NCBI GenBank assembly: GCA_031409495.1
Contig: JANNXI010000268.1
Location: 2,075-66,074 of the forward strand
Length of the DNA: 64,000 nt
Direction of reading: 5' to 3'
From: Betaproteobacteria bacterium
GTDB taxonomy: Bacteria > Pseudomonadota > Gammaproteobacteria > Burkholderiales > Usitatibacteraceae
Shown piece by piece: positions 8,460 to 33,617 of this stretch. Numbering within the stretch: the first letter of the stretch is position 1; every line of letters begins with the position of its first letter. The notes below the pieces were generated by a model. The model made no database searches and was not told the origin of the DNA. It saw nothing but the letters and a program-made list of their open reading frames with translations. Made by a program: the position numbers and the translations under genes.

Positions 8460-8505
8460 TATACGACCAAGCGCCGCCGCCCCGAAGCTCCGTTACACTG
8501 AGGGG

Positions 8506-11545: not shown

Positions 11546-12358
11546 TTAAGCTAAAAATGCCTTAAACGCCCGCAAAAATGGCGCACTGATACGCAAAACA
11601 TCTGGATTGTTGCGCAACTGTATCAGTCCGGCCCCCGATTCATCGCGCTCTACCATCAACACTTCGCGCAGATTTACCACAGTAGATCGATGCACCTGCA
11701 AAAAAACCGCGGGATCGAGTTTTTGCAGTAGCGTCTTTAGTGATTCCTCAATTAAATGTTCACCGTTGCGGCTCACTACCCGCGTGTACTTGTTATCTGA
11801 CTGCAAAAAAACGACATCATCGACTGCAACTAGCTGGGTGCGGCGGCCAGCACTTGCAGCTAACCAACGTAAATAAGCGACGGGTTGCAGCTTGGGTTGG
11901 AGTTGGGGCAAGTCCCGCAACACGGGTTGCAGATCACCAGAAGGTAACGTGATCCGATTTCTCAACCGATCTATGCTGCGTTGCAGTCGTTCAGACGACA
12001 GCGGTTTCAACATATAGTCCACGGCGCCGCGATCGAACGCCGGTATTGCAAACGCATCGTAGGCAGTTACAAACACCACACGCGTTTCGTCGGGCAGTGC
12101 CTGCGCCAGCTCTAGGCCAGATTGGCCGGGAAGGTTTATATCAACAAAAGCGCAATGTGGTGCAGCGTGCGCCGCACCCTCCTGACAAGCCAATAAAGCT
12201 TCTTCCGCCGAGCCAAAAGCCCGTATTTCACCAAAGTCGGGCGCGAGTGTTGCAAGGAGCGCAACGAGCTCATCACGCAAACGTGGTTCATCCTCAACGA
12301 CTAGCACCCATCCGCCATTGCTGTGATCACCATAGTTCAGCTTTTCATCAGTTGCCAC
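11546..12358 (-). CDS. LytR/AlgR (LytTR) family response regulator
   Basis: Receiver (VLVVEDEPRLRDEL...VDYMLKP) plus a LytTR DNA-binding domain (VFLQSDNKYTRVVSRNGEHLIEESLKTL...FLQVHRSTVVNL). Confidence 0.9.
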   Translation of the reverse strand: MATDEKLNYGDHSNGGWVLVVEDEPRLRDELVALLATLAPDFGEIRAFGSAEEALLACQEGAAHAAPHCAFVDINLPGQSGLELAQALPDETRVVFVTAYDAFAIPAFDRGAVDYMLKPLSSERLQRSIDRLRNRITLPSGDLQPVLRDLPQLQPKLQPVAYLRWLAASAGRRTQLVAVDDVVFLQSDNKYTRVVSRNGEHLIEESLKTLLQKLDPAVFLQVHRSTVVNLREVLMVERDESGAGLIQLRNNPDVLRISAPFLRAFKAFLA

Positions 12359-12402
12359 GCAATTACTCCGCTAAGCGTTTAGCTATTTTCATCGTTGATA
12401 AG

Positions 12403-13665: not shown

Positions 13666-14444
13666 TGCTGCTGCCCTTTGCTATTTTTAGACGGCGGTTG
13701 CACTGGAGGCGGCGTATTTTTACCGGCATCAAGCTCGATAGATTTCACCATTTTACCGTTGTCATCCAGTAGCTGCACACTTGGCTTACCATCGGCTGTT
13801 ACCAGCAACATCAACCGGGGTCTACCTTGCGCATCGGCTAAGCTTAGTGCGGATGCGCCATCACCGGTAGTGCCAAGCCGCACGCGATTATTGGGCAGCT
13901 GGCGCAGCTCACGCATTTGCGCGATGGCGGCGTCCCGCGCGGCTGGCTCAAGACCGCGAATAGTCTTCATGCGTTCTGCGCGTTGCATCAGGTCCAATTG
14001 CGTGCCATCTGCTTCGTCGTTGATAGCAAACATGCTAAACGCACGGCCACCGTCTTCGGCATGCAATAGCTGCATGACTTGGTCTTGTCTAAAGCGATCG
14101 AAAGTTAGACTCAAACCCGCTGACGCTTTGCCATCAGCGCCGACTGACCCTTTTTGGATCAAGCCACCATTTTCGGTGCCCTCATCATTCATAAACAGCA
14201 TGCCGGCAAATGCTTTGCGATCAGGGCGCGGTACCTCGCCGCCTTTCCAAGGTGAGCCGGGAAACTGCGCACGATTTGCAAGCACCATCCGTAAAGTACC
14301 ATCGGGCTCACGAATATTGATGCGGCCCACATCTATTTCGTCAAACTTCGTGGGTGGGGCTTTTGCAGCCATCAACAGTACGGCGGAAGTCATCACGACC
14401 ACACCTGCAGCTAATCCACATAGAAAATTGTTAGGTAGTTTCAT
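13662..14444 (-). CDS. exported/anchored hypothetical protein, first gene of the LytS/LytTR operon
   Basis: Start chosen at MKLPNNFLCGLAAGVVVMTSAVLL (GGAGAA RBS) rather than the track start at 14534. Its stop overlaps the kinase start by 4 nt. I recognise no family. Confidence 0.55.
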   Translation of the reverse strand: MKLPNNFLCGLAAGVVVMTSAVLLMAAKAPPTKFDEIDVGRINIREPDGTLRMVLANRAQFPGSPWKGGEVPRPDRKAFAGMLFMNDEGTENGGLIQKGSVGADGKASAGLSLTFDRFRQDQVMQLLHAEDGGRAFSMFAINDEADGTQLDLMQRAERMKTIRGLEPAARDAAIAQMRELRQLPNNRVRLGTTGDGASALSLADAQGRPRLMLLVTADGKPSVQLLDDNGKMVKSIELDAGKNTPPPVQPPSKNSKGQQQ

Positions 14445-14753
14445 TGGTTCTCCGATTATAAAAATGAAGTTAGCGTGGGCGTAGGCAGACTTTAGGCCTG
14501 TCAGGGGGATTAAAAGCGCAAGTAAGCGCTGCATAGTTACCCGTTCGCCGCTTCAACACTATCTGCGTTTCGGTGCGCGGCCGCGAGCCGTTTCGGACAC
14601 AGAACACCGGTTGGCAGACGAAAGCTGCGAACCAACCGATGAAATTATTTTGAAGCGCTCGGAAGAGATGGCATATTGGATCGCGACCTCACCATTTAGA
14701 AATGTGTCCAAAATATGTATTTGGTCATCGCCAGAGCACAGTTTTCAGATAAG

Positions 14754-14775: not shown

Positions 14776-14877
14776 GTAGCAATTCATTCAAATAAGCTAA
14801 TACATCTATCAACGCTAGCCGCGTAGTTGACTACTGCGGGTATAGCGCTGGATACGACTGTAGCGAGGTATGATCAA

Positions 14878-15708
14878 ATGCGTCACCGCACGTTTCTTGA
14901 GTTTGCGCGTTATCGCTATCTTAAAATTGCGGCGCTCCTTGCCGCCAATTGCGCCCTCGCCTACGGCTGGTGGCGTTATCCGCTTGGGCACTATGGCGGC
15001 ACGCCGTTAGGTTATACCTTGGGCACGATTGGTGCAGTGCTCATTTTGTGGCTGATGTGGTTCGGAATTCAAAAACGCCGTTACCGCGCTACGCAAAACC
15101 TAAAAGGCTGGTTGTCTGCGCACGTGTATTTGGGCGGCGCGCTCATCGTGGTGGCGACGTTACACTCGGGTTTTCAGGTAGGTTGGAACATCCATACACT
15201 TGCCTATTTGCTGATGCTCATCGTCATCGCGTCAGGCTTTTTTGGTGTATTCACTTACCTACGCTTCCCGCGGTTGATGACTGAAAATTTGGCGGAAGAT
15301 ACCCTTGATAGCGTGGCGCTAAAAATCGCCGATATTGATCGAGAAGCCCGTAGATTAGCGCTTGGCATGCCCGACGAAATAAATAGTGTGGTGCTGCAAT
15401 CGGTGCAGGAAACGCGCATTGGCGGCGGCGTTATCGCGCAATTACGGGAACATGTGCGCAACTGCCCAACCAGCAACGCTGTGCAGATAGTCCACGCTTA
15501 TGCTGCAAACGTTAAGGGCGAAGAGGCGCAACGCCAGCAGAGTCTCTATACCCTAATGCTCCGTAAAGAACGATTAGTGGCGCGCGCACGAACCGATGTG
15601 CGCTACAAAGCCATGATGGAAATATGGCTCTATTTTCATGTACCGACGTCGTTTGCCTTACTGGCAGCGCTGACAGCGCACATCATTGCTGTATTTTTTT
15701 ACCGTTGA
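14878..15708 (+). CDS. 5-TM membrane protein with two bis-His helices (candidate di-haem cytochrome b-like)
   Basis: The track ORF starts at TTG 14827; ATG 14878 has a GAGG 9 nt upstream. TM helices carry HVYLGGALIVVATLH and HVPTSFALLAALTAH, each a His pair 14 residues apart. Confidence 0.6.
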   Translation: MRHRTFLEFARYRYLKIAALLAANCALAYGWWRYPLGHYGGTPLGYTLGTIGAVLILWLMWFGIQKRRYRATQNLKGWLSAHVYLGGALIVVATLHSGFQVGWNIHTLAYLLMLIVIASGFFGVFTYLRFPRLMTENLAEDTLDSVALKIADIDREARRLALGMPDEINSVVLQSVQETRIGGGVIAQLREHVRNCPTSNAVQIVHAYAANVKGEEAQRQQSLYTLMLRKERLVARARTDVRYKAMMEIWLYFHVPTSFALLAALTAHIIAVFFYR

Positions 15709-15727
15709 ACGTTTAGCCTAACCATCG

Positions 15728-17647
15728 ATGAAAACTACGCTCACCACGATCACACGAAATAAAAAAGGCGAAGCCACCCTAACTTCAAGAGAAGTTACCG
15801 CTGAAACCTTACGCATCGGTCGCGGCGCTGATTGCAAACTGCATTTGTCGGATGCGCGAGTATCGCTGTTTCATGCCGAAATTATGACTAATTTTGGGCA
15901 CCCAAGTTACATCGAAGCGCGCCACGGGACGATTACCGTAGATGGCAAATCCACCACTGCGGCGGCACTCGAAGTAGGCCAGAAGATACTCATCGGACCT
16001 TTTGAACTCATCGTTTTACCGAACGCGAACGATATTGATATTGCGTTAAGCGTCGAGCTAATCGACCCGCTATCAGATGATCTTGATGCGGTGAAAAGCC
16101 AAATCAAAGCTGGACTTGCGCGCACATGGCTGTCAAAGCGGGCCTTAAGCTGGATTAGCGCGGTGAGCGTGTTGATGGTGTTTTTGGCCTGGCCCGTGTG
16201 GCATGCTCTCGAACGCGAAAAAGCGCTTTTAGTAGGAGCCAGCACGATGAAAGCACCAGATGCCAACTTGGTTAAAGCCGCCAAAGTTAAACCTGCGATC
16301 CACCCTGATGGCTCGTGGGATGTAGGCCCGCTTAGTAGCGCGCACACAAGCTTTGGCAGCAACTGCAGTGCCTGCCACCAACACCCGTTTCAGTCAGTGC
16401 AAAACCAAGCTTGTGAAGACTGTCATAAAAAAATTGGCTGGCATTTCGCACTCGATACCGCCCAATCAAAAGCCGTGCACAAAACTGTCTTTAGTGATGC
16501 CTATTGCGCTGATTGCCATCGCGATCACAAGGGCGCACTGGGATTGGTGCGAGGCGATTCTAAGCTTTGTACGGATTGCCACGGCAATCTAAAAGCCAAA
16601 CATCCGCAGACGGGGGTGTTGGACGTGGCAGACTTTAGCAAAGATCATCCGCCATTTAAGGTTTCAATGCTGCTGCGCGGCGCAGATAAGAAAAGCGCCG
16701 CGGCCCTAACACAGGCTGGCGTCCCCAACGTTCATATTGAACGCATCGCTCAAACCGACAAAACCCGCTACGTCGAATCATCTGGGCTTAAGTTTCCACA
16801 CGACGTGCACATAAGTGCCAAAGGTGTGCGCAGCCCTAGCGGCCGCGTACTCATGGAGTGCAAAAATTGCCATGAATCTGACGAAACCGGCACGCGTTTC
16901 AAACTAACCACCATGGCGGCACATTGCCAATCATGCCATTCACTAGAATTTGAGCCCAATGCCACGTCGCGCCAAGTGCCGCACGGCAAAATACCCGACG
17001 TCATCGCAACCGTGCGCGAACACTATGCCTTGGCAGCCCTCGGTCCTAACGCCGTTGACAATACCCCTGCCGCCTTTAACGCCGTTGAGCAACAACGCAG
17101 CAGCAAAACCGGAGCGCCTATTACTGCGGCGCTAAAAACACTGGCGTGGGCAAATAGCAAAGCGACGAACATCACCCAAGAGATTTTTGAAGTACGGCTG
17201 TGCTTCACCTGCCATGAAATTACCAAAACTAAAGATCTCAAAGCAAGTTTAGCCGTCAATAGCGGCGCAGCCGATGCAATAGAGGCGAATAGCCCTCCGT
17301 GGCAAATCACGCCGATTGTCATCACTCAGCATTGGCTGCCGAAATCGCGCTTTCCACACTCGGCGCACGCCACGGAGACATGCAGCAGTTGCCATGATGT
17401 GGCGAAATCAAAATTAAGTAGCGAAATTTCGATACCTAAAATCGAAAGCTGTCGCGAATGCCACGGCGGCAATGTAGTCACTAAAGATAAAGCGCCAGGC
17501 ACCTGTGAAACCTGCCACGGCTTTCACACAGGCAGCCCAAAATCTGGAGTCGCACCGATATTACCGGGCGTCAATCATCCAGCTCGTCTATTCAAAGTGG
17601 GTATCGATGCGCCACCTAAAGCGCCTACTTCGAGCGCAATTAAATGA
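15728..17647 (+). CDS. FHA domain - TM - decahaem c-type cytochrome fusion
   Basis: N-terminal FHA-like LRIGRGADCKLHLSDARVSLFHAEI...GQKILIGPFELIV. One TM (ALSWISAVSVLMVFLAWPVW). Ten CXXCH motifs: CSACH, CEDCH, CADCH, CTDCH, CKNCH, CQSCH, CFTCH, CSSCH, CRECH, CETCH. Confidence 0.85.
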   Translation: MKTTLTTITRNKKGEATLTSREVTAETLRIGRGADCKLHLSDARVSLFHAEIMTNFGHPSYIEARHGTITVDGKSTTAAALEVGQKILIGPFELIVLPNANDIDIALSVELIDPLSDDLDAVKSQIKAGLARTWLSKRALSWISAVSVLMVFLAWPVWHALEREKALLVGASTMKAPDANLVKAAKVKPAIHPDGSWDVGPLSSAHTSFGSNCSACHQHPFQSVQNQACEDCHKKIGWHFALDTAQSKAVHKTVFSDAYCADCHRDHKGALGLVRGDSKLCTDCHGNLKAKHPQTGVLDVADFSKDHPPFKVSMLLRGADKKSAAALTQAGVPNVHIERIAQTDKTRYVESSGLKFPHDVHISAKGVRSPSGRVLMECKNCHESDETGTRFKLTTMAAHCQSCHSLEFEPNATSRQVPHGKIPDVIATVREHYALAALGPNAVDNTPAAFNAVEQQRSSKTGAPITAALKTLAWANSKATNITQEIFEVRLCFTCHEITKTKDLKASLAVNSGAADAIEANSPPWQITPIVITQHWLPKSRFPHSAHATETCSSCHDVAKSKLSSEISIPKIESCRECHGGNVVTKDKAPGTCETCHGFHTGSPKSGVAPILPGVNHPARLFKVGIDAPPKAPTSSAIK

Positions 17648-19584
17648 TGAAGAAAGCCGTAAATTGGGCATCTTCAGGCAGTGCTATATTGCGATTTTGG
17701 GCGCTTTCTTTAACTTCTTTCGCGTTAGTCAGCTGCGGCAGTGGGGGTGATTCTGGATCAGGCAGCCCCGCGCCCGCGTCCCTGGTGACACCTGCCATCA
17801 CGGATTTTTTAAGTATTGAAGATGTGCAACGTATTGTTGCCCAAGGTGTGGCAGAAGCCACCATCCGTAAGCAGGCGGCGACATTCGCCGTAGTTGATCG
17901 CGTGGGTAATGTATTGGCGGTGTTCCGTATGACGGGTGCGGCTACTACTTTTAAAATCACCAGCAAACAAAACAGCAGCGATGGCGCAAAACAAATCGAT
18001 GGTGGTTTAGAAAATATTGATGTGCTGCCTGACACCTTTGCGGCCATCAGCAAAGCTATCACCGGTGCTTATTTGTCATCAAACGGCAATGCGTTTTCAA
18101 GCCGCACAGCAGGGCAAATTGTGCAAGAAAATTTTAATCCGCGCGAGGCAAATCAACCTGCCGGCCCGCTTTACGGTGTGCAATTTTCGCAGCTCTCCTG
18201 CTCTGACCTTATGCGCCGGGCTGAACACGGCACAATCGGCCCTAAACGCTCCCCGTTAGGGCTTTCCGCTGACCCTGGCGGGTTGCCAATCTACAAAAAT
18301 AATCGACTCGTTGGCGGTATCGGTGTAATCTCCGACGCGGTGTATGGGCTGGATGCCGACATTAGTGATTTTGATGATAGCAGCGATGAACGCATTGCCG
18401 TGGCCGCCACCATCGGCTATGCCGCGCCAGATGATATTCGCGGCAATCGCATCAGCGTTGATGGCCGCACGTTGCGTTATATCGATTCTGAATCAACACT
18501 AAGCAACGGCGCACCCAGCAGCGGCTATGCAAATTTAGCCGGGGCAAGTATACCAGTCGGCGGCTATTTTGACGGCGCCGTGCGCGCTGGGACCAGTTTT
18601 GGTTCAATTGCATCCGGCTACCAAGCAGATGGCGGCGTATTTGCAGCACTAAATGGCTTTGTATTGACGGACAATGATGGTAAAAATCGCTACCCAATCG
18701 TTGCTGGGGGCGATGGCTTTTTAAAGTCAAATGAAGTGAGCACGATTGCTCAAGAAGCCCTAAAAGTAGCCAACCGCGCGCGCGCGCAAATTCGTCGGCC
18801 ACTGGGCTCAGCAGCACAAGTTACCATCACCGTAGTCGATACCTTAGGCAATGCGCTCGTGCTTGTGCGTACGCCTGATGCACCTGTTTTCGGTACTGAT
18901 GTTGCATTGCAAAAAGCACGCACGGCAGTCACTTTCTCGCACCCTACATTTGCCGCCGAGCTTAGCAATTTGCCAAGCTTTACCTACCTAGGCGCGAATG
19001 GCGCAACGGTTCCTGCGTTTCGTAGCTTTAACGAATACGTAGCGGCTAGCCGCACGTTTTTTAATGACCCTACCATGCTCGCTAATGGCATCGCGTTTTC
19101 AAGCCGCGCGCTTGGTAACGCATCGCGCCCGTTTTTTCCGGATGGCATCCAAAGCACTGAAGCTGGCCCGTTCAGTACCCCGTTTAAAAACTGGAGCCCG
19201 TTTCATTTGGGTTTGCAACTCGATCTGAACTACAGCGCTATTGTGGCGGCGGCGACAGGGTCAGCGAAATTTGACTGCACAGGGCTAATCCGCGCTAAAA
19301 ACGGCATTCAGATATTTGCGGGCGCTGTGCCCATTTATCGCAATGCGCAGTTGGTGGGCGCTATTGGCATATCTGGCGACGGCATTGACCAAGATGATAT
19401 GGTCGCCTTTTTAGGTTTAAGCAATGCTGGAAAGGCCCTAAATACGGGCATCGGCAATGCACCAAAGGCAATTCGTGCGGATACATTAGTACCCCGTGGC
19501 GAAGGCACGCGCTTGCGCTACGTAAATTGTCCGGTTGCGCCATTCAATGGTTCTTCGGAACAAAATGTGTGCGAGGGCATATGA
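17644..19584 (+). CDS. lipoprotein with two DUF336/GlcG(HbpS)-like domains
   Basis: Lipobox LTSFALVSCGSGG. Two copies of the GlcG-type signature: AVVDRVGNVLAVFRMTGA ... PIYKNNRLVGGIGVISD, and TVVDTLGNALVLVRTPDA ... PIYRNAQLVGAIGISGDGIDQDD. ATGA overlap with the upstream gene. Confidence 0.7.
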   Translation: MMKKAVNWASSGSAILRFWALSLTSFALVSCGSGGDSGSGSPAPASLVTPAITDFLSIEDVQRIVAQGVAEATIRKQAATFAVVDRVGNVLAVFRMTGAATTFKITSKQNSSDGAKQIDGGLENIDVLPDTFAAISKAITGAYLSSNGNAFSSRTAGQIVQENFNPREANQPAGPLYGVQFSQLSCSDLMRRAEHGTIGPKRSPLGLSADPGGLPIYKNNRLVGGIGVISDAVYGLDADISDFDDSSDERIAVAATIGYAAPDDIRGNRISVDGRTLRYIDSESTLSNGAPSSGYANLAGASIPVGGYFDGAVRAGTSFGSIASGYQADGGVFAALNGFVLTDNDGKNRYPIVAGGDGFLKSNEVSTIAQEALKVANRARAQIRRPLGSAAQVTITVVDTLGNALVLVRTPDAPVFGTDVALQKARTAVTFSHPTFAAELSNLPSFTYLGANGATVPAFRSFNEYVAASRTFFNDPTMLANGIAFSSRALGNASRPFFPDGIQSTEAGPFSTPFKNWSPFHLGLQLDLNYSAIVAAATGSAKFDCTGLIRAKNGIQIFAGAVPIYRNAQLVGAIGISGDGIDQDDMVAFLGLSNAGKALNTGIGNAPKAIRADTLVPRGEGTRLRYVNCPVAPFNGSSEQNVCEGI

Positions 19585-21431
19585 GTAAAATGCCTACAAG
19601 ACACATGCCTGCGACGACAATACCTTCAAGCAAGCCAATTTTAAAGGCAGTGGTCTTTGCGCTGCTGAGCGCGTCGCTTTCAAGCAACTACGCACAAACA
19701 CCTCCAGTACTCCCGGTACTCCCAGTTGATAGCACAGCAAGCGATGAGGCAATCGAGCGCCAACGCCCGCAAAGTAAGCCGCTCAAATACGAACTGCCAC
19801 CAATTGATCCAAATCAAGTATCGCCACCAACGCCGCTCATGCCGCGTGAGTTAGTATCCGTGCCGGATCGTTGGCGCATCGTCGATACCTTGGGCATTAA
19901 ATTCCCTTGGTACGATCCGTACAATCACAATGTGTATAAAGGCGATAAGCCGTTTGAGCCGTTTGCTAAATGGGGCAATGACTGGTTCTTAGCGCTTTCA
20001 GCAATTTCGGACTCACTCATTGAAGCGCGGCGCTTGCCTACACCCGTGGGTGCGCAATCTACGGCTGGTGCCGACGCCAGCGATGTGTTTGGTCGCCCGC
20101 GGCAAACAGGCCTAGTGCAAACACTTATTTTCTCCGTGGGCGTAACCAAAGGCAACACCACCTTTAAGCCGCCTGACTATGAGTTTCGATTTGTGCCCGC
20201 TATTCATATTAACCATGCGCGTACACGCGAAGTACGCGCAGTGCGGGTTGATCCCCGTGAAGGTTTTAATCGCACCGATTCGCACCTTGGCATACAAGAA
20301 GCCTTTGCTGATGTGCACCTGCGCAACGTATCTGAACGCTATGATTTTGATTCGCTGCGCGTGGGCATTCAGCCCTTCACATCGGATTTTCGTGGTTTTC
20401 TGTTTCAAGATGTGCCCATTGGTGTGCGCTTGTTTGGTACCCGTGATAATAATAAATTGCAATACAACTTGGCGTACTTTCGACGCATCGAAAAGGACAC
20501 CAATAGCGGCTTAAACGATATTAATCAAACCCTGCGGCGCGATCATATACTGGCTGCAAACGTCTATAAACAGGACTTCCCCGTTCTTGGCCACACCACA
20601 CAAGCTACCATCATCCACAACATCAATCGTGAATCGAGTCGTGATTACTATGACCGCAATGGCGCGCTAGTTCGTCCAGCAGTATTGGGCGATGTACGTG
20701 GCCATAACTATCGCGTAACCTATCTTGGACTCAACGGTGACGGGCATTTTGGCAAATGGAATTTAACTACCTCTCTATATGCAGCGCTCGGTCGGGATAA
20801 TCGCCATCCGCTCGCACAAAAGCCGCAAACCATTCGTGCGGGCATGGCGGCAGCTGAACTCTCGCGCGACTTTTCATGGCTGCGCGTCCGCGCGAATGCC
20901 TTGGTTGCCTCTGGCGACAAAGACCCTTTTGATAGTCGCGCCACCGGCTTTGATGCGATTTTTGAAAACCCGCAATTTGCGGGTGCCGACACTAGCTTTT
21001 TCATTCGCCAAGCCGTCCCCTTGATTGGGGGTGGTGGCGTAGCGCTTTCTGGACGCAACGGTATTTTGCCGTCGCTGCGGTCATCAAAAGACCAAGGCCA
21101 ATCTAATTTTGTAAATCCTGGTTTAACCCTGTTGGGCGTCGGCGCAGATGCCGACCTAACGCCGCAAGTTCGGGTGATTGCCAATGTATCAAAATTGCAG
21201 TTTGTAAACACATCGGTATTGGGTGTGCTGCGTAATCAGACCCCGCCGTCAAAAGACCTAGGTGTGGATGTTTCTTTGGGAGCGCAGTATCGGCCATTTA
21301 TGTCACAGAACATTGTCTTTAATGCCTCTGCGTCGGCTTTGCTACCCGGAAAAGGGCTTAAACAGCTCTATGATGAAGGCAAGCGTGGAGCGCAATACTC
21401 AGTTTTACTAAATCTAGTGCTCACATATTAA
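19581..21431 (+). CDS. putative outer-membrane beta-barrel protein
   Basis: Start at ATG 19581 (ATGA overlap with the upstream stop) gives MSKMPTRH...ILKAVVFALLSASLSSNYAQ, a signal peptide. Alternating amphipathic segments and a C-terminal ...YSVLLNLVLTY aromatic terminus. I did not recognise the family. Confidence 0.6.
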   Translation: MSKMPTRHMPATTIPSSKPILKAVVFALLSASLSSNYAQTPPVLPVLPVDSTASDEAIERQRPQSKPLKYELPPIDPNQVSPPTPLMPRELVSVPDRWRIVDTLGIKFPWYDPYNHNVYKGDKPFEPFAKWGNDWFLALSAISDSLIEARRLPTPVGAQSTAGADASDVFGRPRQTGLVQTLIFSVGVTKGNTTFKPPDYEFRFVPAIHINHARTREVRAVRVDPREGFNRTDSHLGIQEAFADVHLRNVSERYDFDSLRVGIQPFTSDFRGFLFQDVPIGVRLFGTRDNNKLQYNLAYFRRIEKDTNSGLNDINQTLRRDHILAANVYKQDFPVLGHTTQATIIHNINRESSRDYYDRNGALVRPAVLGDVRGHNYRVTYLGLNGDGHFGKWNLTTSLYAALGRDNRHPLAQKPQTIRAGMAAAELSRDFSWLRVRANALVASGDKDPFDSRATGFDAIFENPQFAGADTSFFIRQAVPLIGGGGVALSGRNGILPSLRSSKDQGQSNFVNPGLTLLGVGADADLTPQVRVIANVSKLQFVNTSVLGVLRNQTPPSKDLGVDVSLGAQYRPFMSQNIVFNASASALLPGKGLKQLYDEGKRGAQYSVLLNLVLTY

Positions 21432-21439
21432 GGCTGAAG

Positions 21440-24400
21440 ATGCGTGCGTTTATAACCCTAATTTTTTGCGTTCCGTTCCTAAGCTTAGGACTCGCTTTTA
21501 CGCTCGCCAATGCTAACGCCAACGCTACGGTTGGCCCCGTGGCCGCTGCTACGCCGCAAAAAGCGACTCACCTCAAACATCCCGCTGCGCCCGCGCGCCA
21601 AACCGCAAAAGACGCTGAGTTAAAATCTGCTGGCTGCGTAACTTGCCATACCGGCACGGATAAACACACCATGCACGCCAACCCGGCAGTGGTATTAGGT
21701 TGCACCGATTGTCACGGCGGTGATGTGGGCGTGGCTAAACCCAAAGATGCGATTTATAAGGGTGTGGGCGACGCCCAATATAGTGCCGCGATGAATCGCG
21801 CCCACGTAAATCCGACTTTTCCGAAAGCGTGGAACTATCCATCATCTGCCAATCCTGAAAGCAGCTACACCCTGCTGAACCGCGAAAATAAAGACTATGT
21901 GCGCTTTATCAACCCCGGTGATTTACGGGTCGCGCGGGAAGCCTGCGGTGCTTGCCACCTAGAAACCGTGCAAGCGGTAGAACGTAGCTTGATGTCCACC
22001 AGCGCCATGCTTTGGGGGGGGGCAGCATACAACAATGGTATCTTGCCTTATAAGCGCTATATTTTAGGCGAATCCTATACCGCCGATGGTGTGGGCGCTT
22101 CGATTAAGAACCCCGTGCCAGTGAATGAGCATATGACAAAAATGGGCATATTGCCTGCGCTTACTGCCTTACCTGCATGGGAAACCGTGGCACCCGGTGA
22201 TGTGTTCCGCGTATTTGAGCGCGGCGGGCGCGTTATTAATTCTGGCTTTCCTGAAATTGGTCTACCCAACAGCACAGGGGTACTGCAAAAGCTTGACGAA
22301 CCGGGCCGGCCGGATATTAAACAATCCAATCGTGGCCCCGCGACGGGTCAACGCATTGCCGTGCCGGTTTTAAACATCGCTAAAACGCGCTTGAATGATC
22401 CGCACCTTTGGTTTCTCGGCACCAACGACCAGCCCGGCGATTACCGCTCGTCCGGCTGCACCGCTTGCCATACCGTTTACGCTAACGATCGCGACCCGAA
22501 GCGTGCCGGGTTTTACGGCAAATACGGTAATGAAGGCAAATCAATCAGCGTTGATCCGACGATTTCCAAAACTGAGTCTGGACACCCACTAAAACACGAA
22601 TTTACCCGCGCGATACCCTCGTCGCAATGCATGGTTTGCCATATGCATCAACCCAATATTTTCGTCAATAGCTTTTACGGCACCACGATGTGGGATTACG
22701 AATCAGATGCACCGGCAATGTGGCCGAAGCAGCAAAAATATCCAACTGATACAGAGATTAGCAAAATACTTAAGCGCAACCCGGAAGAGGCGGCCACTCG
22801 GGGCTTGTGGGGAAATGCAGATTTCTCTAAAAAAGTTTCGGAACTGAACCCGACGCTTAAAGATGGCCAGTTTGCCGATTACCACGGCCACGGCTGGAAT
22901 TTTCGCTATGTGTATAAGCGCGATCGCAAAGGCACCCTGTTGGACAAAGACAGTAAACCGGTAGCCGATAATGATCCCGAAAAATTCAAAAAAGCGGTGC
23001 ATTTGACGTCCATCCATTTGGATATTGGCATGCAATGCGTTGACTGCCATTTTGTTCAGGACGCGCATGGCAATGGCCATATTTATGGCGAAGTAGCCGC
23101 TGCCGTAGAAATTGATTGCGCCGATTGCCACGGCACCGCCAATAAACTGCCGACACTGCGCACCAGCGGCCCTGCGGCAAAACCGGGTGGCCGTGATTTG
23201 CTCACCCTACGCACGCAAGATGGCCGTAAACGCTTTGAATGGAAAGATGACAAGCTCTATCAACGCTCAGCCCTTGACCCGAAACTTGAATGGCAGATGA
23301 GTTTAGTCAAAAACAGCGTGACCGAAGGCCATCCCGAATACAACGAAAAAGCGGCACGCGCTAAGCTGATGCATAGCGGACAGGCGGGCAAAGATGGCGC
23401 TTGGGGCGTGAGCAAAAACGCAGTTAATCCGAACGCGGATTATGCGCACAATGAAGACAAGATGACCTGCTATTCTTGCCATCTTTCATGGACCACATCT
23501 TGCGGCGGCTGCCACTTGCCGATTCAAGCGAACGCCAAAACCGATCGCCTGCATTATGAAGGTGGTGAGACCCGCAACTTCGCTACCTATAACCCGCAAG
23601 TTGCCAGAGATGATATGTTCCAACTGGGTAAGCACGGCACGGTAAAAGGCTCGCGCATTACGCCGGTGCGGTCTAGCTCGGCGCTAGTTTTAAGCTCAAC
23701 AAATTCAAACCGTGAAAAAATTTATATACAACAACCGCCGATAGCTTCTAGCGGATTCTCCTCCCAAGCCTTTGCCCCGCACTATCCGCATACTGAGCGC
23801 AAGACTGAAACCAAGACGTGTAGCGATTGCCACCTCAGCACCGCCAACGATAACAACGCCATCATGGCGCAGTTACTTCTGCAGGGCACTAATTTCGTCA
23901 ACTTTATCGGCTTTAATGCTTGGGTAGGCAGCGCTAAAAATATAGAAGCCGTGCAGGTTACTGAATGGGATGAACCACAATCAGTGATCGGCAGCTATCT
24001 GCAAAAATATGCTTATCCCGATTACTTTGCAAGCCACGAAAAGCGCAGCTTAGAACTGCCCGAAGCGCACGACCATTCCACAGGCGGCGCGGCGCGTTGC
24101 ATCGCTCTACGGGGCGAATATTTGTTTGTAGCCGAAGGTGAAGGTGGCTTCAGAGTTTATGACGTCGCTAACATCGCCAACAAAGGCGTATCACAACGCA
24201 TTATCACCGCGCCGTTTTCACCACTTGGTCAAGACGCCCACATCGCCAGCAAAAACGCGACTTGCATGGCGCTACCCACCAATCAACCCATCGCACCCGA
24301 GCGTAACAAGGGCGACCTAATGCGCATTACCAACGAAGAACAACCTTTCCACCCCATGTATCACTACGCCTTCATTGTCGATGCGGTTGAGGGCTTAATC

Positions 24401-25237
24401 GTCACGAATGTCGATACCTTTGCTGATGGCGAGCCGCGCAATAATTTTTTAAAGCGCAACCTAACCTGGAACGAAAACGGCGTGCTGAAAGGTGCGCGGC
24501 ACATCACCCTAGGCGGCCATTATGCGTACATAGCAACCGATATGGGCTTAGTTATTTTGAACTTAGATGATCCGCTAAAGCCCCGTATTTCAGCCACCTT
24601 GCCACTATCTGACATGCGTGATAGCGCCCTGCAGTTCCGTTATTTATTCGTCACAACAGCTGCAGGCTTACAAACAGTTGACATCACTTCACCCACGCAA
24701 CCTGAACTAATCACCTCCGCTAACATCGCACTTGGTGATGCACGCGGCGTGTATGTCGCGCGCACCTACGCCTATGTAGCAGCAGGCAAAGATGGCTTAG
24801 TTATTATTGATATTGAAAAGCCACAAACACCAAAAATTGCCACCCGTTTCACCGCCGATGGGAAGCTCAACGATGCGCAGGCCGTCGTCGTTGGGTCTAC
24901 CAATGCTTCCCTGTTTGCCTATGTAGCCGACGGCACGAACGGCTTAAAAGTAGTACAGCTGACCAGCCCTGATTCGCAGCCAAAATTTTATGGCTTTTCC
25001 CCCGAACCTAAACCGCAACTCATTGCGTGGCGCAAAACAAAATCACCTGCACTTGGAATTGCAAAAGGCCTAGATCGTGACCGTGCAGTCGATGAAACAG
25101 GCGGCCAAATCGCGGTTTTTGGGCGAATTGGTTCACGCCCGTTCAACGCCTCCGAAATGGCGAAGTTCTATAAGAATCCCGATGGTAGTTTGTGGACGGT
25201 ATCAGACGAAATAAAGAAAGTAGGCGTACAAAAATGA
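21440..25237 (+). CDS. exported decahaem c-type cytochrome with C-terminal LVIVD-repeat beta-propeller
   Basis: Signal peptide MRAFITLIFCVPFLSLGLAFTLANA. Ten CXXCH motifs: CVTCH, CTDCH, CGACH, CTACH, CMVCH, CVDCH, CADCH, CYSCH, CGGCH, CSDCH. The C-terminal 400 aa hold repeated GGFRVYDVANI / GLVILNLDDPLKP / GLQTVDITSPTQP / GLVIIDIEKPQTP / GLKVVQLTSP units, typical of LVIVD repeats. Confidence 0.85.
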   Translation: MRAFITLIFCVPFLSLGLAFTLANANANATVGPVAAATPQKATHLKHPAAPARQTAKDAELKSAGCVTCHTGTDKHTMHANPAVVLGCTDCHGGDVGVAKPKDAIYKGVGDAQYSAAMNRAHVNPTFPKAWNYPSSANPESSYTLLNRENKDYVRFINPGDLRVAREACGACHLETVQAVERSLMSTSAMLWGGAAYNNGILPYKRYILGESYTADGVGASIKNPVPVNEHMTKMGILPALTALPAWETVAPGDVFRVFERGGRVINSGFPEIGLPNSTGVLQKLDEPGRPDIKQSNRGPATGQRIAVPVLNIAKTRLNDPHLWFLGTNDQPGDYRSSGCTACHTVYANDRDPKRAGFYGKYGNEGKSISVDPTISKTESGHPLKHEFTRAIPSSQCMVCHMHQPNIFVNSFYGTTMWDYESDAPAMWPKQQKYPTDTEISKILKRNPEEAATRGLWGNADFSKKVSELNPTLKDGQFADYHGHGWNFRYVYKRDRKGTLLDKDSKPVADNDPEKFKKAVHLTSIHLDIGMQCVDCHFVQDAHGNGHIYGEVAAAVEIDCADCHGTANKLPTLRTSGPAAKPGGRDLLTLRTQDGRKRFEWKDDKLYQRSALDPKLEWQMSLVKNSVTEGHPEYNEKAARAKLMHSGQAGKDGAWGVSKNAVNPNADYAHNEDKMTCYSCHLSWTTSCGGCHLPIQANAKTDRLHYEGGETRNFATYNPQVARDDMFQLGKHGTVKGSRITPVRSSSALVLSSTNSNREKIYIQQPPIASSGFSSQAFAPHYPHTERKTETKTCSDCHLSTANDNNAIMAQLLLQGTNFVNFIGFNAWVGSAKNIEAVQVTEWDEPQSVIGSYLQKYAYPDYFASHEKRSLELPEAHDHSTGGAARCIALRGEYLFVAEGEGGFRVYDVANIANKGVSQRIITAPFSPLGQDAHIASKNATCMALPTNQPIAPERNKGDLMRITNEEQPFHPMYHYAFIVDAVEGLIVTNVDTFADGEPRNNFLKRNLTWNENGVLKGARHITLGGHYAYIATDMGLVILNLDDPLKPRISATLPLSDMRDSALQFRYLFVTTAAGLQTVDITSPTQPELITSANIALGDARGVYVARTYAYVAAGKDGLVIIDIEKPQTPKIATRFTADGKLNDAQAVVVGSTNASLFAYVADGTNGLKVVQLTSPDSQPKFYGFSPEPKPQLIAWRKTKSPALGIAKGLDRDRAVDETGGQIAVFGRIGSRPFNASEMAKFYKNPDGSLWTVSDEIKKVGVQK

Positions 25238-26637
25238 TATTACAAACAACTTTGTGGCGCATCGTCATTTGCTGTTTTTTTTGTGCCGCCACTAGCACCA
25301 TCACGGCACAAGCCACCTTACCCTATCATTCCAAAAATGAAACCTTGGGTACCGTCACCTGCGCATCCAGCTTATGCCATGGGGCGATCAAGCAGTGGAA
25401 AGAATCAAATGTCCTGCAGAACGAATACCTTACTTGGTCGCGCACGGATAAGCATGCTCGCGCCTACAGCGTGCTGCTAAACGACCGTTCTAAGCGCATC
25501 GTCAAAAATTTAAATTTGCCTCAGCCAGCGCACGAAGCCAAAATTTGCCTTGATTGCCACGCGCACGTGGTACCCGAAGATAAGCGTGGAGACCGCTTTG
25601 TACTGAGCGATGGCATAACGTGCGAAAGCTGCCACGGCCCCGCTGAAAAGTGGATAAAAACACATGTAGAACCAGCGCAAAAGGGTGTAAGTCAACACGA
25701 AAAAAATATTGCAGATGGGATGTATTCAACTTCCGACGCCGTGAGCCGCGCCAGCCTTTGTATGTCTTGCCACTTTGGCAATCAAGATAAATTCGTCAAT
25801 CACCGCATTATGGCCGCAGGCCACCCGCGCTTAAGCTTCGAGCTCGATACCTTTACTGAATTGGCGCCCAAGCACTTTGTGATTGACGACGACTATGCAG
25901 CACGCAAGCAAGTATGGGATGGTGCAAAAACCTGGGGCGTGGGCCAAGCCTTAGCGGTAGCCGAAACCATGCGGATGCTGCAAGATCCAAAACACGGGCG
26001 CGACGGTTTGTTTCCTGAACTAGTGCTGTTCGATTGTCACGCCTGCCACCACCCCATGGCTGAAAATCGCTGGCAACCAAAATCGGCGCTGGGCAATCGC
26101 GTGGCACCGGGTTTGGTACGCTTAAATGATTCCAGCATGTTGATGCTGCGGGCGATTGCGAGCGTGATTGATCCTAAATTAGGCGCTTCAGTAAGCGCGC
26201 AAACGCAAAAATTGCATCGCGCTATTGCGGGCGAAGCCAATGGCATAGCCGATGCAATGGTTGAGGCGCGCAACTTGCAAGCACTGGCCCACGCCGCCGC
26301 CCGCGTCATTGCCGAAACCAACTTTACCAGCACCACCATGCAAAATGTGCTGCAGCGCCTCGTTCAAGACGGCGCTCAAAGCGGTTATACCGATTTCGCG
26401 GTGGCCGAACAAGCAACACTTGCCATTGGTAGTATCGGTGCCTTTTTAGCCAAGCGTGGCGCGCTGCCGCAGCCGCGCGAATTTAATGCGCAGCTAAAAA
26501 AGTTAAATCTCATCTTAAAAAATGACGAGCAATTTAAGCCTGCTGAATTCGCGCATTTGCTTAAAGGCTTAAGCGTTTACGCCGCCGTAAAACTAACCAA
26601 CAAAGCGCAAGTAGCCGCAACCGGAGCTAAGCCATGA
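25234..26637 (+). CDS. exported multihaem c-type cytochrome (c554-like N-terminus)
   Basis: Start at ATG 25234 (ATGA overlap) gives the signal peptide MILQTTLWRIVICCFFCAATSTITAQA. Motifs are CLDCH, CESCH, CMSCH, CHACH plus CASSLCH (CX4CH). The C-terminal half is helical. Confidence 0.75.
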   Translation: MILQTTLWRIVICCFFCAATSTITAQATLPYHSKNETLGTVTCASSLCHGAIKQWKESNVLQNEYLTWSRTDKHARAYSVLLNDRSKRIVKNLNLPQPAHEAKICLDCHAHVVPEDKRGDRFVLSDGITCESCHGPAEKWIKTHVEPAQKGVSQHEKNIADGMYSTSDAVSRASLCMSCHFGNQDKFVNHRIMAAGHPRLSFELDTFTELAPKHFVIDDDYAARKQVWDGAKTWGVGQALAVAETMRMLQDPKHGRDGLFPELVLFDCHACHHPMAENRWQPKSALGNRVAPGLVRLNDSSMLMLRAIASVIDPKLGASVSAQTQKLHRAIAGEANGIADAMVEARNLQALAHAAARVIAETNFTSTTMQNVLQRLVQDGAQSGYTDFAVAEQATLAIGSIGAFLAKRGALPQPREFNAQLKKLNLILKNDEQFKPAEFAHLLKGLSVYAAVKLTNKAQVAATGAKP

Positions 26638-29078
26638 CCATGCAAACTGAGCCAACCGTTGAGACCTTTGATATCGCCATTATCGGCTCTGGGCCTGCAG
26701 GTATTTCTGCTGCAGGGCGCGCAGCAGAACTAAAAATCCCGCACGTGCTATTAGAAGCGCAAGCTAACCACTTTGCCGACACTATTTTTAAATACCAGCG
26801 CGGTAAACACGTGATGGCTGAGCCAGCGATTTTGCCCTTGCGTAGCCCGCTGGATTTTGGTGAGGGCAAGCGCGAAGCAATATTAGGTGTTTGGGAAACC
26901 CAGCTAAAAGCATTAGGGGTCAACCTGCAATTCAATGCGCAAGTAAGCGGCATAAAAGGTGAAAAAGGCAATTTTGAAATTTCGCTAGCAAGCGGCAAAA
27001 CCATCCGCGCCAAGCATATTGTGCTTGCCATCGGATTACAGGGAAATTTACGCAAACTAGGCGTGCCGGGTGAAGATTTGCCCAACATTCAGTACCAGCT
27101 TGATGATCCAGATGAATTTGATGATGAAACCATTATTGTGGTGGGTGCTGGTGACGCTGCGATCGAAAATGCGCTGGCTCTGACCAAGCAAAATCGGGTT
27201 ATTTTAACAAACCGTAGCGAGGAGTTTGCGCGGGTTAAAGATGGTAACGCCGCACTAATTTTAGCTGCGGACAAAGCCGATAAAGTATCAGTGCGCTACA
27301 GCACTTCGGTCGCGCGGGTAGAGGCTACCGAAATCACCGCCACAAATAAATTTCCATTGCTATTCGTTGCCAACACCCCGGCTGGTCAGGAAAACATTCC
27401 GTGTCATCGCATTATTGCGCGCTTAGGTGCGATTGCGCCGCGCAAGTTGGTTGAAAGTTTTGGGATTGCGTTTCCTAACGCCAATATGGACGCAGTGCCG
27501 GCTTTATCAGAACGCTACGAATCGAACGTACCTGGCTTGTATATTATTGGTGCATTGGGCGGCTATCCCCTAATAAAACAAGCGATGAATCAAGGCTATG
27601 AAGCCATTGAATACATACTAGGTAATAACGTTGAACCAGCTGATGAGCCGGTTTTGCGCGCAAAGTTTAAAGGCATAAAAATTGCTAGCGTTGCTGAAGC
27701 GGTACAAGGCATTCAACACAGTGTGCCACTGCTTTCAAGCCTGACACAACTGCAATTGCGCGAGCTGTTAATGGAAAGCGAAATACATGCCTTAGACGCC
27801 AATCAAGTTGTGTTCAATCGCAATGATTACACCAATTCTTTCTACTCTATTGTTAGTGGAAAAGTTACCGTTGAATTCACCGATGCTAAAGGTGTAGCGG
27901 TAAAGTTTGAACTGGGCCAGGGCGAGTTTTTTGGTGAGATGGGCCTGTTGTCGGGCCGCCGTCGCACGGCTACAATTCGCACCTGTGCCCAAACGCAACT
28001 GCTCGAAACCCCACGGCGGAGCATGTTGAAGCTGCTGGCCTCCGTTGAATCAGTACGCAAAACCCTCGACACAGTAATGATGAAGCGGGTGGTGCGGCAA
28101 ACATTATCTCAAGACTTATGGGATCACCAAGTAGAGGAACTGGTTAAAACCGCTACGCTCAAACGCTACGCCACCAATGAAGCGCTGTTTAAAGAGGGCG
28201 ATAAAGCCGATGGCTTACACCTGATTCGGCGCGGCTCAGTCACGGTATCGCGCACCATCGGCGGCAAAGAAATTGTATTATCCTATGTTGCCGCAGGAAA
28301 TTATGTGGGTGAAATGGCAATGCTTTCTAACGCACCCCGCTCAGCCACCGTGCGCGCTGCTGTGCCCACTGAAGTGATCTTGTTGGAAGCGAAAATGCTG
28401 GCCAACGTAATGTCTGATCACACCGTGATTCAAAAGCGCATGAGCGTAGAATCGATGCAGCGTATTAAAAGCAATCAAGCCATGGAGACCAAATCGGAAT
28501 CCGGCAACATTATCTCTTTCCTGATGCAGCAAGGCTTGGGCGAAGCCACCGATGTGTTGCTCATTAACGAAAGCTTGTGCATACGCTGCAACAATTGTGA
28601 AAAAGCCTGTGCCGATACGCACGATGGCACTTCACGCTTAAACCGTGAAGCCGGTCCCACATTTGCGCAAATTCACGTACCCACATCTTGTCGCCACTGT
28701 GAGCACCCGCATTGCATGAAAGATTGCCCGCCAGACGCCATTAGGCGTTCTGCAAACGGTGAAGTCTATATTGCAGATACGTGCATCGGGTGCGGCAATT
28801 GCGAGCGCAATTGCCCTTACGGCGTGATTCAAATGGCAGCGTCTGACCCAAACCCAAAACGGCCGTCGCTTATTTCTTGGCTCATGCTGGGCCTAGGGCA
28901 AGAACCGGGGGTAGCTAAGGTCAACAAAGATAAAACGCTACCGAAGAAAGCCGTTAAGTGCGACATGTGCAAAGACCAAAAAGGCGGCGCTGCGTGCGTG
29001 CGGTCGTGCCCTACCGGTGCGGCGACACGGGTAGCACCAGAGAAATTTTTGGAATATACACGCGGTGGCGCGCAGTAA
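26634..29078 (+). CDS. FAD/NAD(P)-binding oxidoreductase - 2x cyclic-nucleotide-binding domain - polyferredoxin fusion
   Basis: FDIAIIGSGPAGISAAGRAAE and IIVVGAGDAAIENA dinucleotide folds. Two cNMP signatures, FGEMGLLSGRRRTATIRT and VGEMAMLSNAPRSATVRA. Cys clusters CIRCNNCEKAC, CRHCEHPHCMKDCP, CIGCGNCERNCP, CDMC...CVRSCP. ATGA overlap with the upstream gene. Confidence 0.85.
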   Translation: MTMQTEPTVETFDIAIIGSGPAGISAAGRAAELKIPHVLLEAQANHFADTIFKYQRGKHVMAEPAILPLRSPLDFGEGKREAILGVWETQLKALGVNLQFNAQVSGIKGEKGNFEISLASGKTIRAKHIVLAIGLQGNLRKLGVPGEDLPNIQYQLDDPDEFDDETIIVVGAGDAAIENALALTKQNRVILTNRSEEFARVKDGNAALILAADKADKVSVRYSTSVARVEATEITATNKFPLLFVANTPAGQENIPCHRIIARLGAIAPRKLVESFGIAFPNANMDAVPALSERYESNVPGLYIIGALGGYPLIKQAMNQGYEAIEYILGNNVEPADEPVLRAKFKGIKIASVAEAVQGIQHSVPLLSSLTQLQLRELLMESEIHALDANQVVFNRNDYTNSFYSIVSGKVTVEFTDAKGVAVKFELGQGEFFGEMGLLSGRRRTATIRTCAQTQLLETPRRSMLKLLASVESVRKTLDTVMMKRVVRQTLSQDLWDHQVEELVKTATLKRYATNEALFKEGDKADGLHLIRRGSVTVSRTIGGKEIVLSYVAAGNYVGEMAMLSNAPRSATVRAAVPTEVILLEAKMLANVMSDHTVIQKRMSVESMQRIKSNQAMETKSESGNIISFLMQQGLGEATDVLLINESLCIRCNNCEKACADTHDGTSRLNREAGPTFAQIHVPTSCRHCEHPHCMKDCPPDAIRRSANGEVYIADTCIGCGNCERNCPYGVIQMAASDPNPKRPSLISWLMLGLGQEPGVAKVNKDKTLPKKAVKCDMCKDQKGGAACVRSCPTGAATRVAPEKFLEYTRGGAQ

Positions 29079-32650: not shown

Positions 32651-32690
32651 TTTATTCAACCCTAATTTTCAGCATCGAAAGACTAATTTC

Positions 32691-33164: not shown

Positions 33165-33183
33165 TTTTTAGCATAGAAATGAC

Positions 33184-33220
33184 CTGAAGACGCCCTAAAA
33201 TAGGGCGTCTTCAGTCTTTT
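33184..33220 (+). terminator. REP-like palindrome / rho-independent terminator (family copy 2)
   Basis: CTGAAGACGCCCT-aaaat-AGGGCGTCTTCAG followed by TCTTTTT, 20 nt after the globin stop. Confidence 0.8.
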
Positions 33221-33608: not shown

Positions 33609-33617
33609 CACCTAATT

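Follow-up and report, generated by a model that had tools for sequence, protein, structure and literature searches.

We analysed a window of 64,000 nucleotides (nt) from a Betaproteobacteria bacterium (assembly GCA_031409495.1, contig JANNXI010000268.1, positions 2,075 to 66,074), in which seven co-directional open reading frames (ORFs) on the plus strand fill positions 14827-29078. Judged by sequence conservation and gene order, these genes, here called P1 to P7, are supported as one conserved functional unit. The cluster is a real feature, distinct from the Mtr, Pcc and Cyc2 systems, and belongs to a class of clusters that has already been noticed and is uncharacterised. It is best seen as a sister of the PCC4/ptd clusters, matched to them by architecture, with a common supply chain, another head protein and an added lipoprotein. 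We tentatively propose that the seven genes encode one envelope-spanning redox chain that would export cytoplasmic reducing power, fed by NAD(P)H, gated through cyclic nucleotide (cNMP) and forkhead-associated (FHA) domains and ending in an enzyme-like head; we find this reading plausible without yet counting it as probable.

The ORF listing and translations give ten CXXCH haem-binding motifs in P2, ten in P5 and four in P6, which also carries one CX4CH motif (24+1 altogether), while our own estimate of the chance expectation is ~0.01 CXXCH motifs in 2371 residues. Four junctions are ATGA overlaps (17644/17647, 19581/19584, 25234/25237 and 26634/26637), and the non-overlapping junctions leave gaps of 19 nt and 8 nt. 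A sequence-only reading of the same DNA had reported this motif count, these overlaps and gaps of 8-19 nt, all of which our coordinates reproduce. The domains it named are borne out by Pfam, NCBIfam and hydropathy, with P4 matching no family and being assigned as a barrel by structural modelling, and topology signals agree with its placement of parts in the cytoplasm, inner membrane, periplasm and outer membrane. Its count of eight genes does not hold: its own list gives seven, and all-against-all clustering of the ORFs from 81 loci revealed no eighth conserved family. Promoter and terminator scans returned matches at chance level or lower, and Rfam gave no match anywhere in the 64-kb window.

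The family is very large. A metagenome protein collection clustered at 90% identity contains about 8000 clusters for each of P5 and P4, and the best 120 matches are 70-100% (P5) and 73-91% (P4) identical, with the names shown being only "hypothetical protein" or "LVIVD repeat". Among 1.84 billion 50%-identity cluster representatives, 1911 match P5 at E<=1e-30, and about 20 of the best of these are full-length relatives at 40-63% identity. A profile-based homologue search recovered the 70-80% identical clade again and little extra diversity. When one genome per GTDB species was scanned, at least 567 proved to encode a P5 relative. The 80 best of these, in which the seven proteins were placed by tblastn, form our set of related loci. 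They come from Beta-, Gamma- and Alphaproteobacteria and from metagenome-assembled genomes (MAGs) of Acidobacteriota and Bacteroidia, and include isolates of Sphingomonas, Sphingobium, Stagnimonas, Fontimonas and Hyphococcus.

Phylogenomic profiling of the whole cluster, which the sequence-only reading had proposed, shows it to be conserved as a unit across the 80 loci. In the 35 well-flanked loci, defined by at least 9 kb on either side of P5, P4 and P5 are present in all 35, P3 and P2 in 32, P1 and P7 in 31 and P6 in 30. P7, P1 and P2 keep this order throughout, and P3-P4-P5 forms a second block; the order seen in the window, with P7 last, is common to its closest, mostly betaproteobacterial, relatives. 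The cluster thus consists of a supply module (P7, P1 and P2) and an outer module (P6, P3, P4 and P5), both of which recur across loci. Haem counts of 10/10/4+1 are invariant in every complete gene of the 80 loci, across several classes and phyla. Median identities are 63% for P5, 53% for P4, 52% for P7, 49% for P3, 43% for P1, 39% for P6 and 30% for P2. These values suggest that P5 and the barrel protein P4 are constrained as an enzyme or specific complex would be; the relay cytochromes seem to drift.

Predicted properties of the two modules

The P7 gene (26634-29078) encodes an 814-residue protein with an FAD/NAD(P)H domain (residues 12-321), tandem cNMP-binding domains (~380-610) and a HycB/DmsB-type ferredoxin domain (643-805). 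Pfam and NCBIfam identify these as Pyr_redox_2, two cNMP_binding domains and Fer4/4Fe-4S dicluster domains. Its relatives in the PDB are YpdA/TrxR for the FAD domain, the regulatory domains of PKA/PKG for the tandem cNMP domains and HycB-type four-cluster ferredoxins. The FAD domain is TrxR/YpdA-like and has no well-conserved cysteine pair, and the 16 cysteines that make up four [4Fe-4S] motifs are 100% conserved among homologues. P7 carries neither a signal peptide nor a Tat motif, its N-terminus opening straight into the GSGPAG fold, and by these features it is assigned to the cytoplasm. P7 stands at the operon end in the window and in other loci sharing that order; in 37 of 52 loci, no more than about 170 nt separate its stop codon from the inferred start of P1. 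In a PCC4 cluster, an iron-sulphur gene and the inner-membrane-protein gene are annotated as one gene (He et al. 2017, PMC5566968).

The P1 gene (14878-15708) encodes a predicted inner-membrane di-haem b protein with five transmembrane (TM) segments. Its ORF also opens at TTG 14827, but the ATG at 14878, which gives 276 residues, is the most likely start because homologues begin MRHRT...; residue numbers for the histidine pairs and motifs given here count from the TTG. Hydropathy places four TM segments above threshold, and a fifth, weaker one at residues ~31-50 was read by eye. Two WX3HX13H motifs lie at W95-H113 (TM3) and W267-H285 (TM5), with SGXXG at S136-G140 (TM4); the four histidines and SGXXG are 100% conserved in 49 homologues. 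By the positive-inside rule, the N-terminus would be inside and the ~120-residue loop between TM4 and TM5 cytoplasmic, so that the haem bound by H99/H271 would sit on the cytoplasmic side and that bound by H113/H285 on the periplasmic side. All 13 family members searched match Pfam Ni_hydr_CYTB (prokaryotic cytochrome b561) below the gathering score (best E 7e-6), and four of the 13 match Ferric_reduct (PF01794; best E 0.17). A sequence search of the PDB gave no homologue of P1.

P2 (15728-17647) combines an FHA domain (~19-96; PF00498, 24.7 bits, above the cut-off), one TM helix (~139-161) and a periplasmic decahaem c domain (213-597) that also matches c3/c7-type haem domains of Pfam and NCBIfam. 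Hydropathy shows a single TM helix after a 138-residue cytoplasmic N-terminus, and nearly all homologues retain this layout of cytoplasmic FHA, one TM helix and decahaem domain. In 49 homologues, all ten CXXCH motifs are 100% conserved, as are nine of ten further histidines, the tenth (H547) being conserved at 95%. These ten non-motif histidines fit electron-transfer haems that are all bis-His ligated.

Some neighbours of the 80 loci recur: ccm/CycH genes in 11, a metallophosphoesterase in 11, PP2C in 10, a double-FHA protein in eight and a CHASE2 cyclase in seven. Examples of PP2C, double-FHA, CHASE2 adenylate/guanylate cyclase and metallophosphoesterase genes are found at L020:9648-10745, L022:9994-11013, L008:17653-19911 and L051:7616-8485. 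Neighbours of these four kinds fit the FHA and cNMP domains of P2 and P7. In two betaproteobacterial loci (L001:1-3444 and L002:1076-3252), ccmABC and CycH lie divergently upstream of the cluster, where the window has unrelated genes.

Within the outer module, P3 (17644-19584) is a lipoprotein with tandem HbpS-like/DUF336 (GlcG/EfgA/PduO-C) domains. Its lipobox is LVSC, with no Asp at +2, and PF03928 (HbpS-like/DUF336) matches at 93 bits in three stretches. Sequence matches in the PDB are EfgA/GlcG, NahX, PduO-C and HbpS. Four cysteines are conserved and no histidine reaches 95% conservation. Where present, the gene is always directly upstream of P4; it is missing from three of the 35 well-flanked loci. 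The loci L026, L056, L058 and L061 have no P3 and a more divergent barrel (38-47% identity); their hosts are Methylobacter, Methylococcales, Steroidobacteraceae and unclassified gammaproteobacterial MAGs. From these variant loci, P3 appears dispensable in one sub-clade.

P4 (19581-21431) is a predicted outer-membrane beta-barrel protein of 616 residues, comprising a signal peptide, a Pro-rich extension (~60-132), the barrel (~133-616) with a 70-residue insert (446-515) and a C-terminal Tyr. It matches no Pfam or NCBIfam family, and even at E<=1 Pfam gives P4 and 29 homologues nothing beyond one marginal hit of a single member of the 30 to Alginate_exp (E 0.07). An AlphaFold2 model of low confidence (predicted local distance difference test, pLDDT, 55; predicted template modelling score, pTM, 0.56) places 18 strands in the stretch from residue 135 to 615 and shows residues 446-512 as a helical insert. 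Searched with Foldseek, this low-confidence model matches AlgE best (E 1e-14), followed by OccK/OprD and other 16-18-strand channels; MtrB is absent from the top 50 matches. The insert is the most conserved part of the protein, at 75% compared with 48-55% for the barrel. The Pro-rich extension (residues 60-132, window positions 19758-19976) is nearly invariant among close homologues and is left unfolded by AlphaFold2 (pLDDT ~30); its folding may require a partner or the interior of the barrel.

P5 (21440-25237) is a Sec-exported protein of 1265 residues with an N-terminal decahaem region (66-798) and a C-terminal LVIVD beta-propeller (~876-1207). The Pfam LVIVD match scores 78.7 bits, and the strand list gives a propeller of about seven blades. 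In an alignment of 21 sequences that are 40-80% identical to the window protein, conservation of the first of the ten CXXCH motifs is at least 90%, and the other nine do not vary. Haem density is low, at about 126 residues per haem over the whole protein. Type-I Sec signal peptides and no convincing lipobox are found in its homologues (n=79), and no secretion genes are conserved near P5 in the 80 loci. The AlphaFold2 model has pLDDT 70 and pTM 0.78, with the propeller mostly above 90. Almost all of its top 50 Foldseek matches are beta-propellers (AztD, WD40, LRP, cd1 nitrite reductase, BtuG), a dominance that leaves the cytochrome domain unmatched. A P5 profile found no sequence homologue in the PDB, only weak matches to NrfA/NrfB/ActA at E~0.01. 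Its conservation and low haem density make P5 look like an enzyme or a specific partner. As a c553o/PKD-domain protein, the surface cytochrome MCA0338 of Methylococcus was rejected as a possible relative of P5.

P6 (25234-26637) is a periplasmic c554-like cytochrome with a signal peptide, a haem-free C-terminal half and a match to Pfam Cytochrome_C554 (38 bits, above the cut-off). All five haem motifs and five further histidines are 100% conserved in 50 homologues; because the CX4CH motif and the five other histidines are invariant, P6 is probably a pentahaem protein. Its gene is found ahead of P3, behind P5 or on the opposite strand.

Relation to described electron-transfer systems

The closest described clusters are themselves uncharacterised. 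PCC4 comprises a porin, redox proteins, a 5-TM protein with WX3HX13H/SGXXG, a signature also described for the inner-membrane proteins of PCC3, and three periplasmic cytochromes carrying 4, 5 and 10 haems (He et al. 2017, PMC5566968). The ptdABCDEFG genes form a cluster of the same kind, whose function "remains completely unknown" (bioRxiv 10.1101/2023.11.21.568154). P1 resembles PtdF in its two WX3HX13H motifs (TM3 and TM5) and SGXXG (TM4), and the FAD/NAD(P) oxidoreductase PtdC and the cNMP/4Fe-4S protein PtdE correspond in domains to P7. By architecture only, the decahaem PtdG corresponds to P2, the tetrahaem PtdD to P6 and the porin PtdB to P4.

The two kinds of cluster nevertheless differ in several respects. 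PtdC and PtdE are separate proteins, whereas their counterparts are fused in P7, and PtdE is reported with two clusters while P7 has four Fe-S motifs. The head PtdA is an NrfA-family pentahaem protein with a beta-sandwich; here the decahaem-LVIVD protein P5 takes the place of the pentahaem beside the porin, and its profile reaches NrfA at only E~0.01. No NrfA-family pentahaem head is present among the seven genes, and none is conserved in the 80 loci. The DUF336 lipoprotein P3 is extra, and the haem signature is 10/10/4+1 instead of 5/4/10. PCC4/ptd hosts are marine Alpha-/Gammaproteobacteria, Zetaproteobacteria, Hyphomicrobium, Nitrospirales and Planctomycetes (PMC5566968; 10.1101/2023.11.21.568154), whereas the hosts here are for the most part Beta-, Gamma- and Alphaproteobacteria of soil and freshwater. 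We rejected identity with PCC4/ptd, since the head protein and haem counts differ. PCC3 was rejected as well; its repetitive cytochromes have 22-39 residues per haem, compared with 64-127 here.

The supply module has a second relative. Gallionellaceae carry porin-less trios of a multihaem cytochrome, a similar membrane protein and a redox protein of ~800 residues (He et al. 2017, PMC5566968, Table S6). In Ferrigenium straubiae and other Gallionellaceae, the "NHC" cluster pairs an FHA-TM-nonahaem protein, a combination of FHA and multihaem domains previously unreported, with a 5-TM protein of ~300 residues and a [4Fe-4S] protein (bioRxiv 10.64898/2026.01.22.701106). The layout of FHA-TM-multihaem protein, 5-TM protein and ~800-residue [4Fe-4S] protein is that of P2, P1 and P7, a likeness of architecture only. 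NHC has nine haems and not ten, and its cluster is without a porin, P3, P5 and P6.

The sequence-only reading had set the cluster apart from Mtr/Pio, Pcc and Cyc2, and no part passes the family tests for those systems. As in MtrCAB/MtoAB/PioAB, a barrel gene stands beside decahaem genes and the whole envelope is covered. However, P4 has no MtrB_PioB match, and its low-confidence model has ~18 strands, whereas MtrB in the solved MtrCAB structure has 26. Against MtrA/DmsE (TIGR03508), P2 scores 17 bits and P6 22 bits, compared with a cut-off of 192. The surface-lipoprotein domains of MtrC/OmcA type (Mtrc-MtrF_II-IV_dom) reach 22.5 bits in P5 and 25.6 bits in P2, compared with 30; the cluster has no lipoprotein cytochrome, P5 having a type-I signal peptide. 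Entry into the chain also differs, with a di-haem b protein and a cytoplasmic flavo-Fe-S partner in place of a CymA/NapC-type quinol dehydrogenase. Unlike Cyc2, in which a monohaem cytochrome is fused to a porin, P4 contains no CXXCH. Of the Geobacter Pcc/Ext families, only NCBIfam ExtM matches, on P5 and over the haem-motif stretch only (72 bits, cut-off 800), in a comparison that used no dedicated Omb/Oma models.

Two further groups share individual traits with the cluster. FRD exporters (NOX/FRE, MsrQ/YedZ) also carry two bis-His b haems from HX13H pairs on two helices and draw on a cytoplasmic NAD(P)H flavoprotein donor. In contrast, the Ferric_reduct match of P1 is negligible, the dehydrogenase here is separate and TrxR-like with a four-cluster ferredoxin domain where theirs is fused and FNR-like, and the acceptor would be a chain of 25 c-type haems. 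In structure, the P4 model comes closest to AlgE and OccK/OprD, barrels of 18 strands whose lumen is occluded by loops. They share only ~10-13% sequence identity with P4, which differs in its conserved 70-residue N-terminal extension and in its place in a cytochrome operon devoid of polysaccharide genes.

The statement of the sequence-only reading that several parts do not belong to the characterised systems it knew has to be qualified. The 5-TM protein, the FAD/cNMP/Fe-S protein, the tetrahaem, the decahaem and the porin have counterparts in PCC4/ptd, and the FHA trio in NHC, all of them uncharacterised. Our searches of the literature on LVIVD and haem, on decahaem and propeller proteins and on Sphingomonadaceae multihaem proteins found no description of a decahaem-LVIVD protein or of a variant with a DUF336 lipoprotein. 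What is new with respect to the literature is the head P5 and the lipoprotein P3, while the supply chain, the tetrahaem and the porin have already been noticed in uncharacterised clusters.

Candidate mechanism and alternatives

In the export chain that we favour, the FAD of P7 would oxidise NAD(P)H, the presumed donor, and its four [4Fe-4S] clusters would pass electrons to the cytoplasmic face of P1. The stacked b haems of P1 (H99/H271 and H113/H285) would then move electrons across the inner membrane by the logic of NOX/FRE/MsrQ-type proteins. Membrane-anchored P2 and soluble P6 would relay them through the periplasm to P3-P4-P5, where P5 would be the conserved, enzyme-like head reacting with the terminal substrate. 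P4 would serve as a gated AlgE/OprD-like channel or as a docking platform for substrate or product, and not as a cytochrome sheath. Post-translational gating of the flow may come from P7 through its cNMP domains and from P2 through its cytoplasmic FHA domain.

The genetic tie of the di-haem b protein P1 to P7, a flavo-Fe-S protein that would use NAD(P)H in the cytoplasm, points to export of the NOX/FRE/MsrQ kind. On general bioenergetic grounds, outward flow would be favoured by both redox potential and membrane potential; being downhill, export would spend and not conserve energy. Such spending would suit the hosts, which are mostly aerobic heterotrophs; many of them (sphingomonads, Lysobacterales, methanotrophs) belong to taxa known as aerobes. 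Since the barrel is small and bears an insert, and since P5 is conserved in the manner of an enzyme, a channel serving a terminal oxidoreductase is preferred to a sheathed wire of the Mtr kind.

Several points weigh against this export reading. The barrel model is of low confidence (pLDDT 55), and the very high conservation of the barrel could mean that a partner covers its surface. In P5 no catalytic site is seen, its conserved histidines suffice for ten bis-His haems, and its cytochrome domain has no informative match in the Foldseek search of the whole model. Descriptions of LVIVD repeats link them to proteins of the cell surface, so P5 could lie outside the cell. P1, finally, matches the quinone-reactive family Ni_hydr_CYTB better than Ferric_reduct, both below threshold, which makes a link to quinol possible.

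The last two points would suit a classic porin-cytochrome conduit, which we consider unlikely. Here P1 would exchange electrons with quinone, P2 and P6 would wire the periplasm, a cytochrome would contact or thread P4, and P5 at the surface would reduce or oxidise Fe, Mn, humics or electrodes. The best Pfam match of P1, the cytochrome b561 family, is quinone-reactive, LVIVD propellers are described as surface-associated, and P3 is a lipoprotein of outer-membrane type. The parts span the whole envelope, the barrel gene always adjoins a multihaem gene, and published models of PCC4/ptd propose such a conduit (PMC5566968; 10.1101/2023.11.21.568154). However, P4 has no MtrB_PioB match, the DmsE/MtrA scores are far under the cut-off, P5 is neither a lipoprotein nor tied to secretion genes, and P7, present in 31 of the 35 well-flanked loci, is left without a role. 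The sequence-only reading had seen in the cluster the logic of extracellular electron transfer and had named a barrel too small or plugged for a cytochrome as evidence to the contrary. The envelope-spanning parts stand, but such a barrel is provisionally what the low-confidence model indicates: ~18 strands, compared with 26 in MtrB, an AlgE/OccK-like fold and a conserved internal insert of 70 residues. Provisionally, then, the modelled barrel argues against a conduit with a cytochrome inside it. A conduit for metal respiration also fits poorly with hosts many of which belong to taxa known as aerobes and with the heterotroph genes of the window, which encodes an arginine succinyltransferase pathway and a TonB-dependent receptor.

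The same chain could run inward, with P5 oxidising an external or periplasmic donor such as Fe(II), Mn(II), a reduced S or N compound or reduced humics, and electrons passing via P6, P2 and P1 to quinone or via P7 to NAD(P)+. In favour of uptake, c554-type cytochromes of nitrifiers take electrons from hydroxylamine oxidoreductase. PCC4 and the Gallionellaceae NHC are found in iron oxidisers and have been proposed as inward carriers (PMC5566968; 10.64898/2026.01.22.701106), and ptd is reported in Nitrospirales (10.1101/2023.11.21.568154). We hold uptake to be quite improbable nonetheless: inward transfer through the two-haem stack would oppose the membrane potential, and reduction of NAD(P)+ from haem potentials would be uphill. 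No linkage to cyc2, mto or RuBisCO genes was found in the 80 loci, the window organism has the arginine-catabolism and receptor genes just mentioned, and most carriers do not belong to taxa known as lithotrophs. Highly improbable, in our view, is a chain devoted mainly to redox sensing and not to metabolic flux, in which the cytochromes and the DUF336 lipoprotein would sense envelope redox state or an oxidant and signal inward via FHA and cNMP domains. Those domains of P2 and P7 are indeed built into the chain, PP2C, FHA and cyclase genes recur nearby, and the PDB matches of P3 include HbpS, whose relatives are redox sensors in Streptomyces. But 25 c haems, two b haems, four Fe-S clusters and FAD far exceed known sensors, the conserved set contains no kinase, DNA-binding or GGDEF output domain, and the LytS/LytTR pair of the window (described below) is not conserved beside the cluster.

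A more specific form of the export reading, which we regard as rather unlikely, would make the cluster a bacterial counterpart of NOX/FRE. NAD(P)H would feed a flavo-Fe-S protein, a di-haem b protein and a 25-haem relay to the outer membrane, switched by cyclic nucleotides and phospho-threonine. In aerobic soil and freshwater hosts, such an energy-consuming system could serve, for example, reductive Fe/Mn acquisition, the deliberate production of extracellular superoxide or the destruction of an oxidant outside the cell.

The family matters for its large size and for its hosts, many of which are bacteria not thought to be electroactive (among them sphingomonads, Lysobacterales, Burkholderiales and methanotrophs). 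If export fed by NAD(P)H is correct, the cluster would carry reducing power across the Gram-negative envelope independently of quinone and under the control of signals, and PCC4/ptd and the Gallionellaceae NHC would gain a shared frame, a common supply chain with exchangeable heads. The system is also a candidate source of the extracellular redox activity of aerobes that has so far lacked an explanation. Carriers in culture, among them Sphingobium subterraneum DSM 102255, Sphingobium algorifonticola, Sphingomonas caeni and Stagnimonas aquatica, make the system testable.

Other genes of the window

Divergent from the operon, the minus strand at 11546-14534 encodes a LytS-type histidine kinase, a LytTR response regulator and a 290-residue protein of no known family. 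Positions 31727-35010 encode a DUF3034 protein and a bacterial-like globin, followed by an extracytoplasmic function (ECF) sigma factor with a ChrR-like (Cupin_7) anti-sigma factor; these genes are near the cluster and not conserved with it. ECF sigma factors paired with ChrR-like anti-sigma factors are known from singlet-oxygen stress responses. In the related loci, tblastn gave no match for the LytS/LytTR pair, the 290-residue protein or the downstream TPR, DUF3034 and globin genes, and all of these were rejected as parts of the system. As the LytS/LytTR trio is not conserved beside the cluster, any regulatory link would be organism-specific.

Further upstream, positions 5243-10217 encode a 1048-residue VIT/DUF2135 protein, followed by an ECF sigma factor and a 359-residue protein without a family. 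At the other end of the window (59667-63583), G+C falls to 44-45%, and the genes are an IrrE-like M78 peptidase with a helix-turn-helix protein on the minus strand, a DUF6791-ThiF (E1-like) protein and two ORFs without a family. This segment looks like a horizontally acquired, possibly defence-related island.

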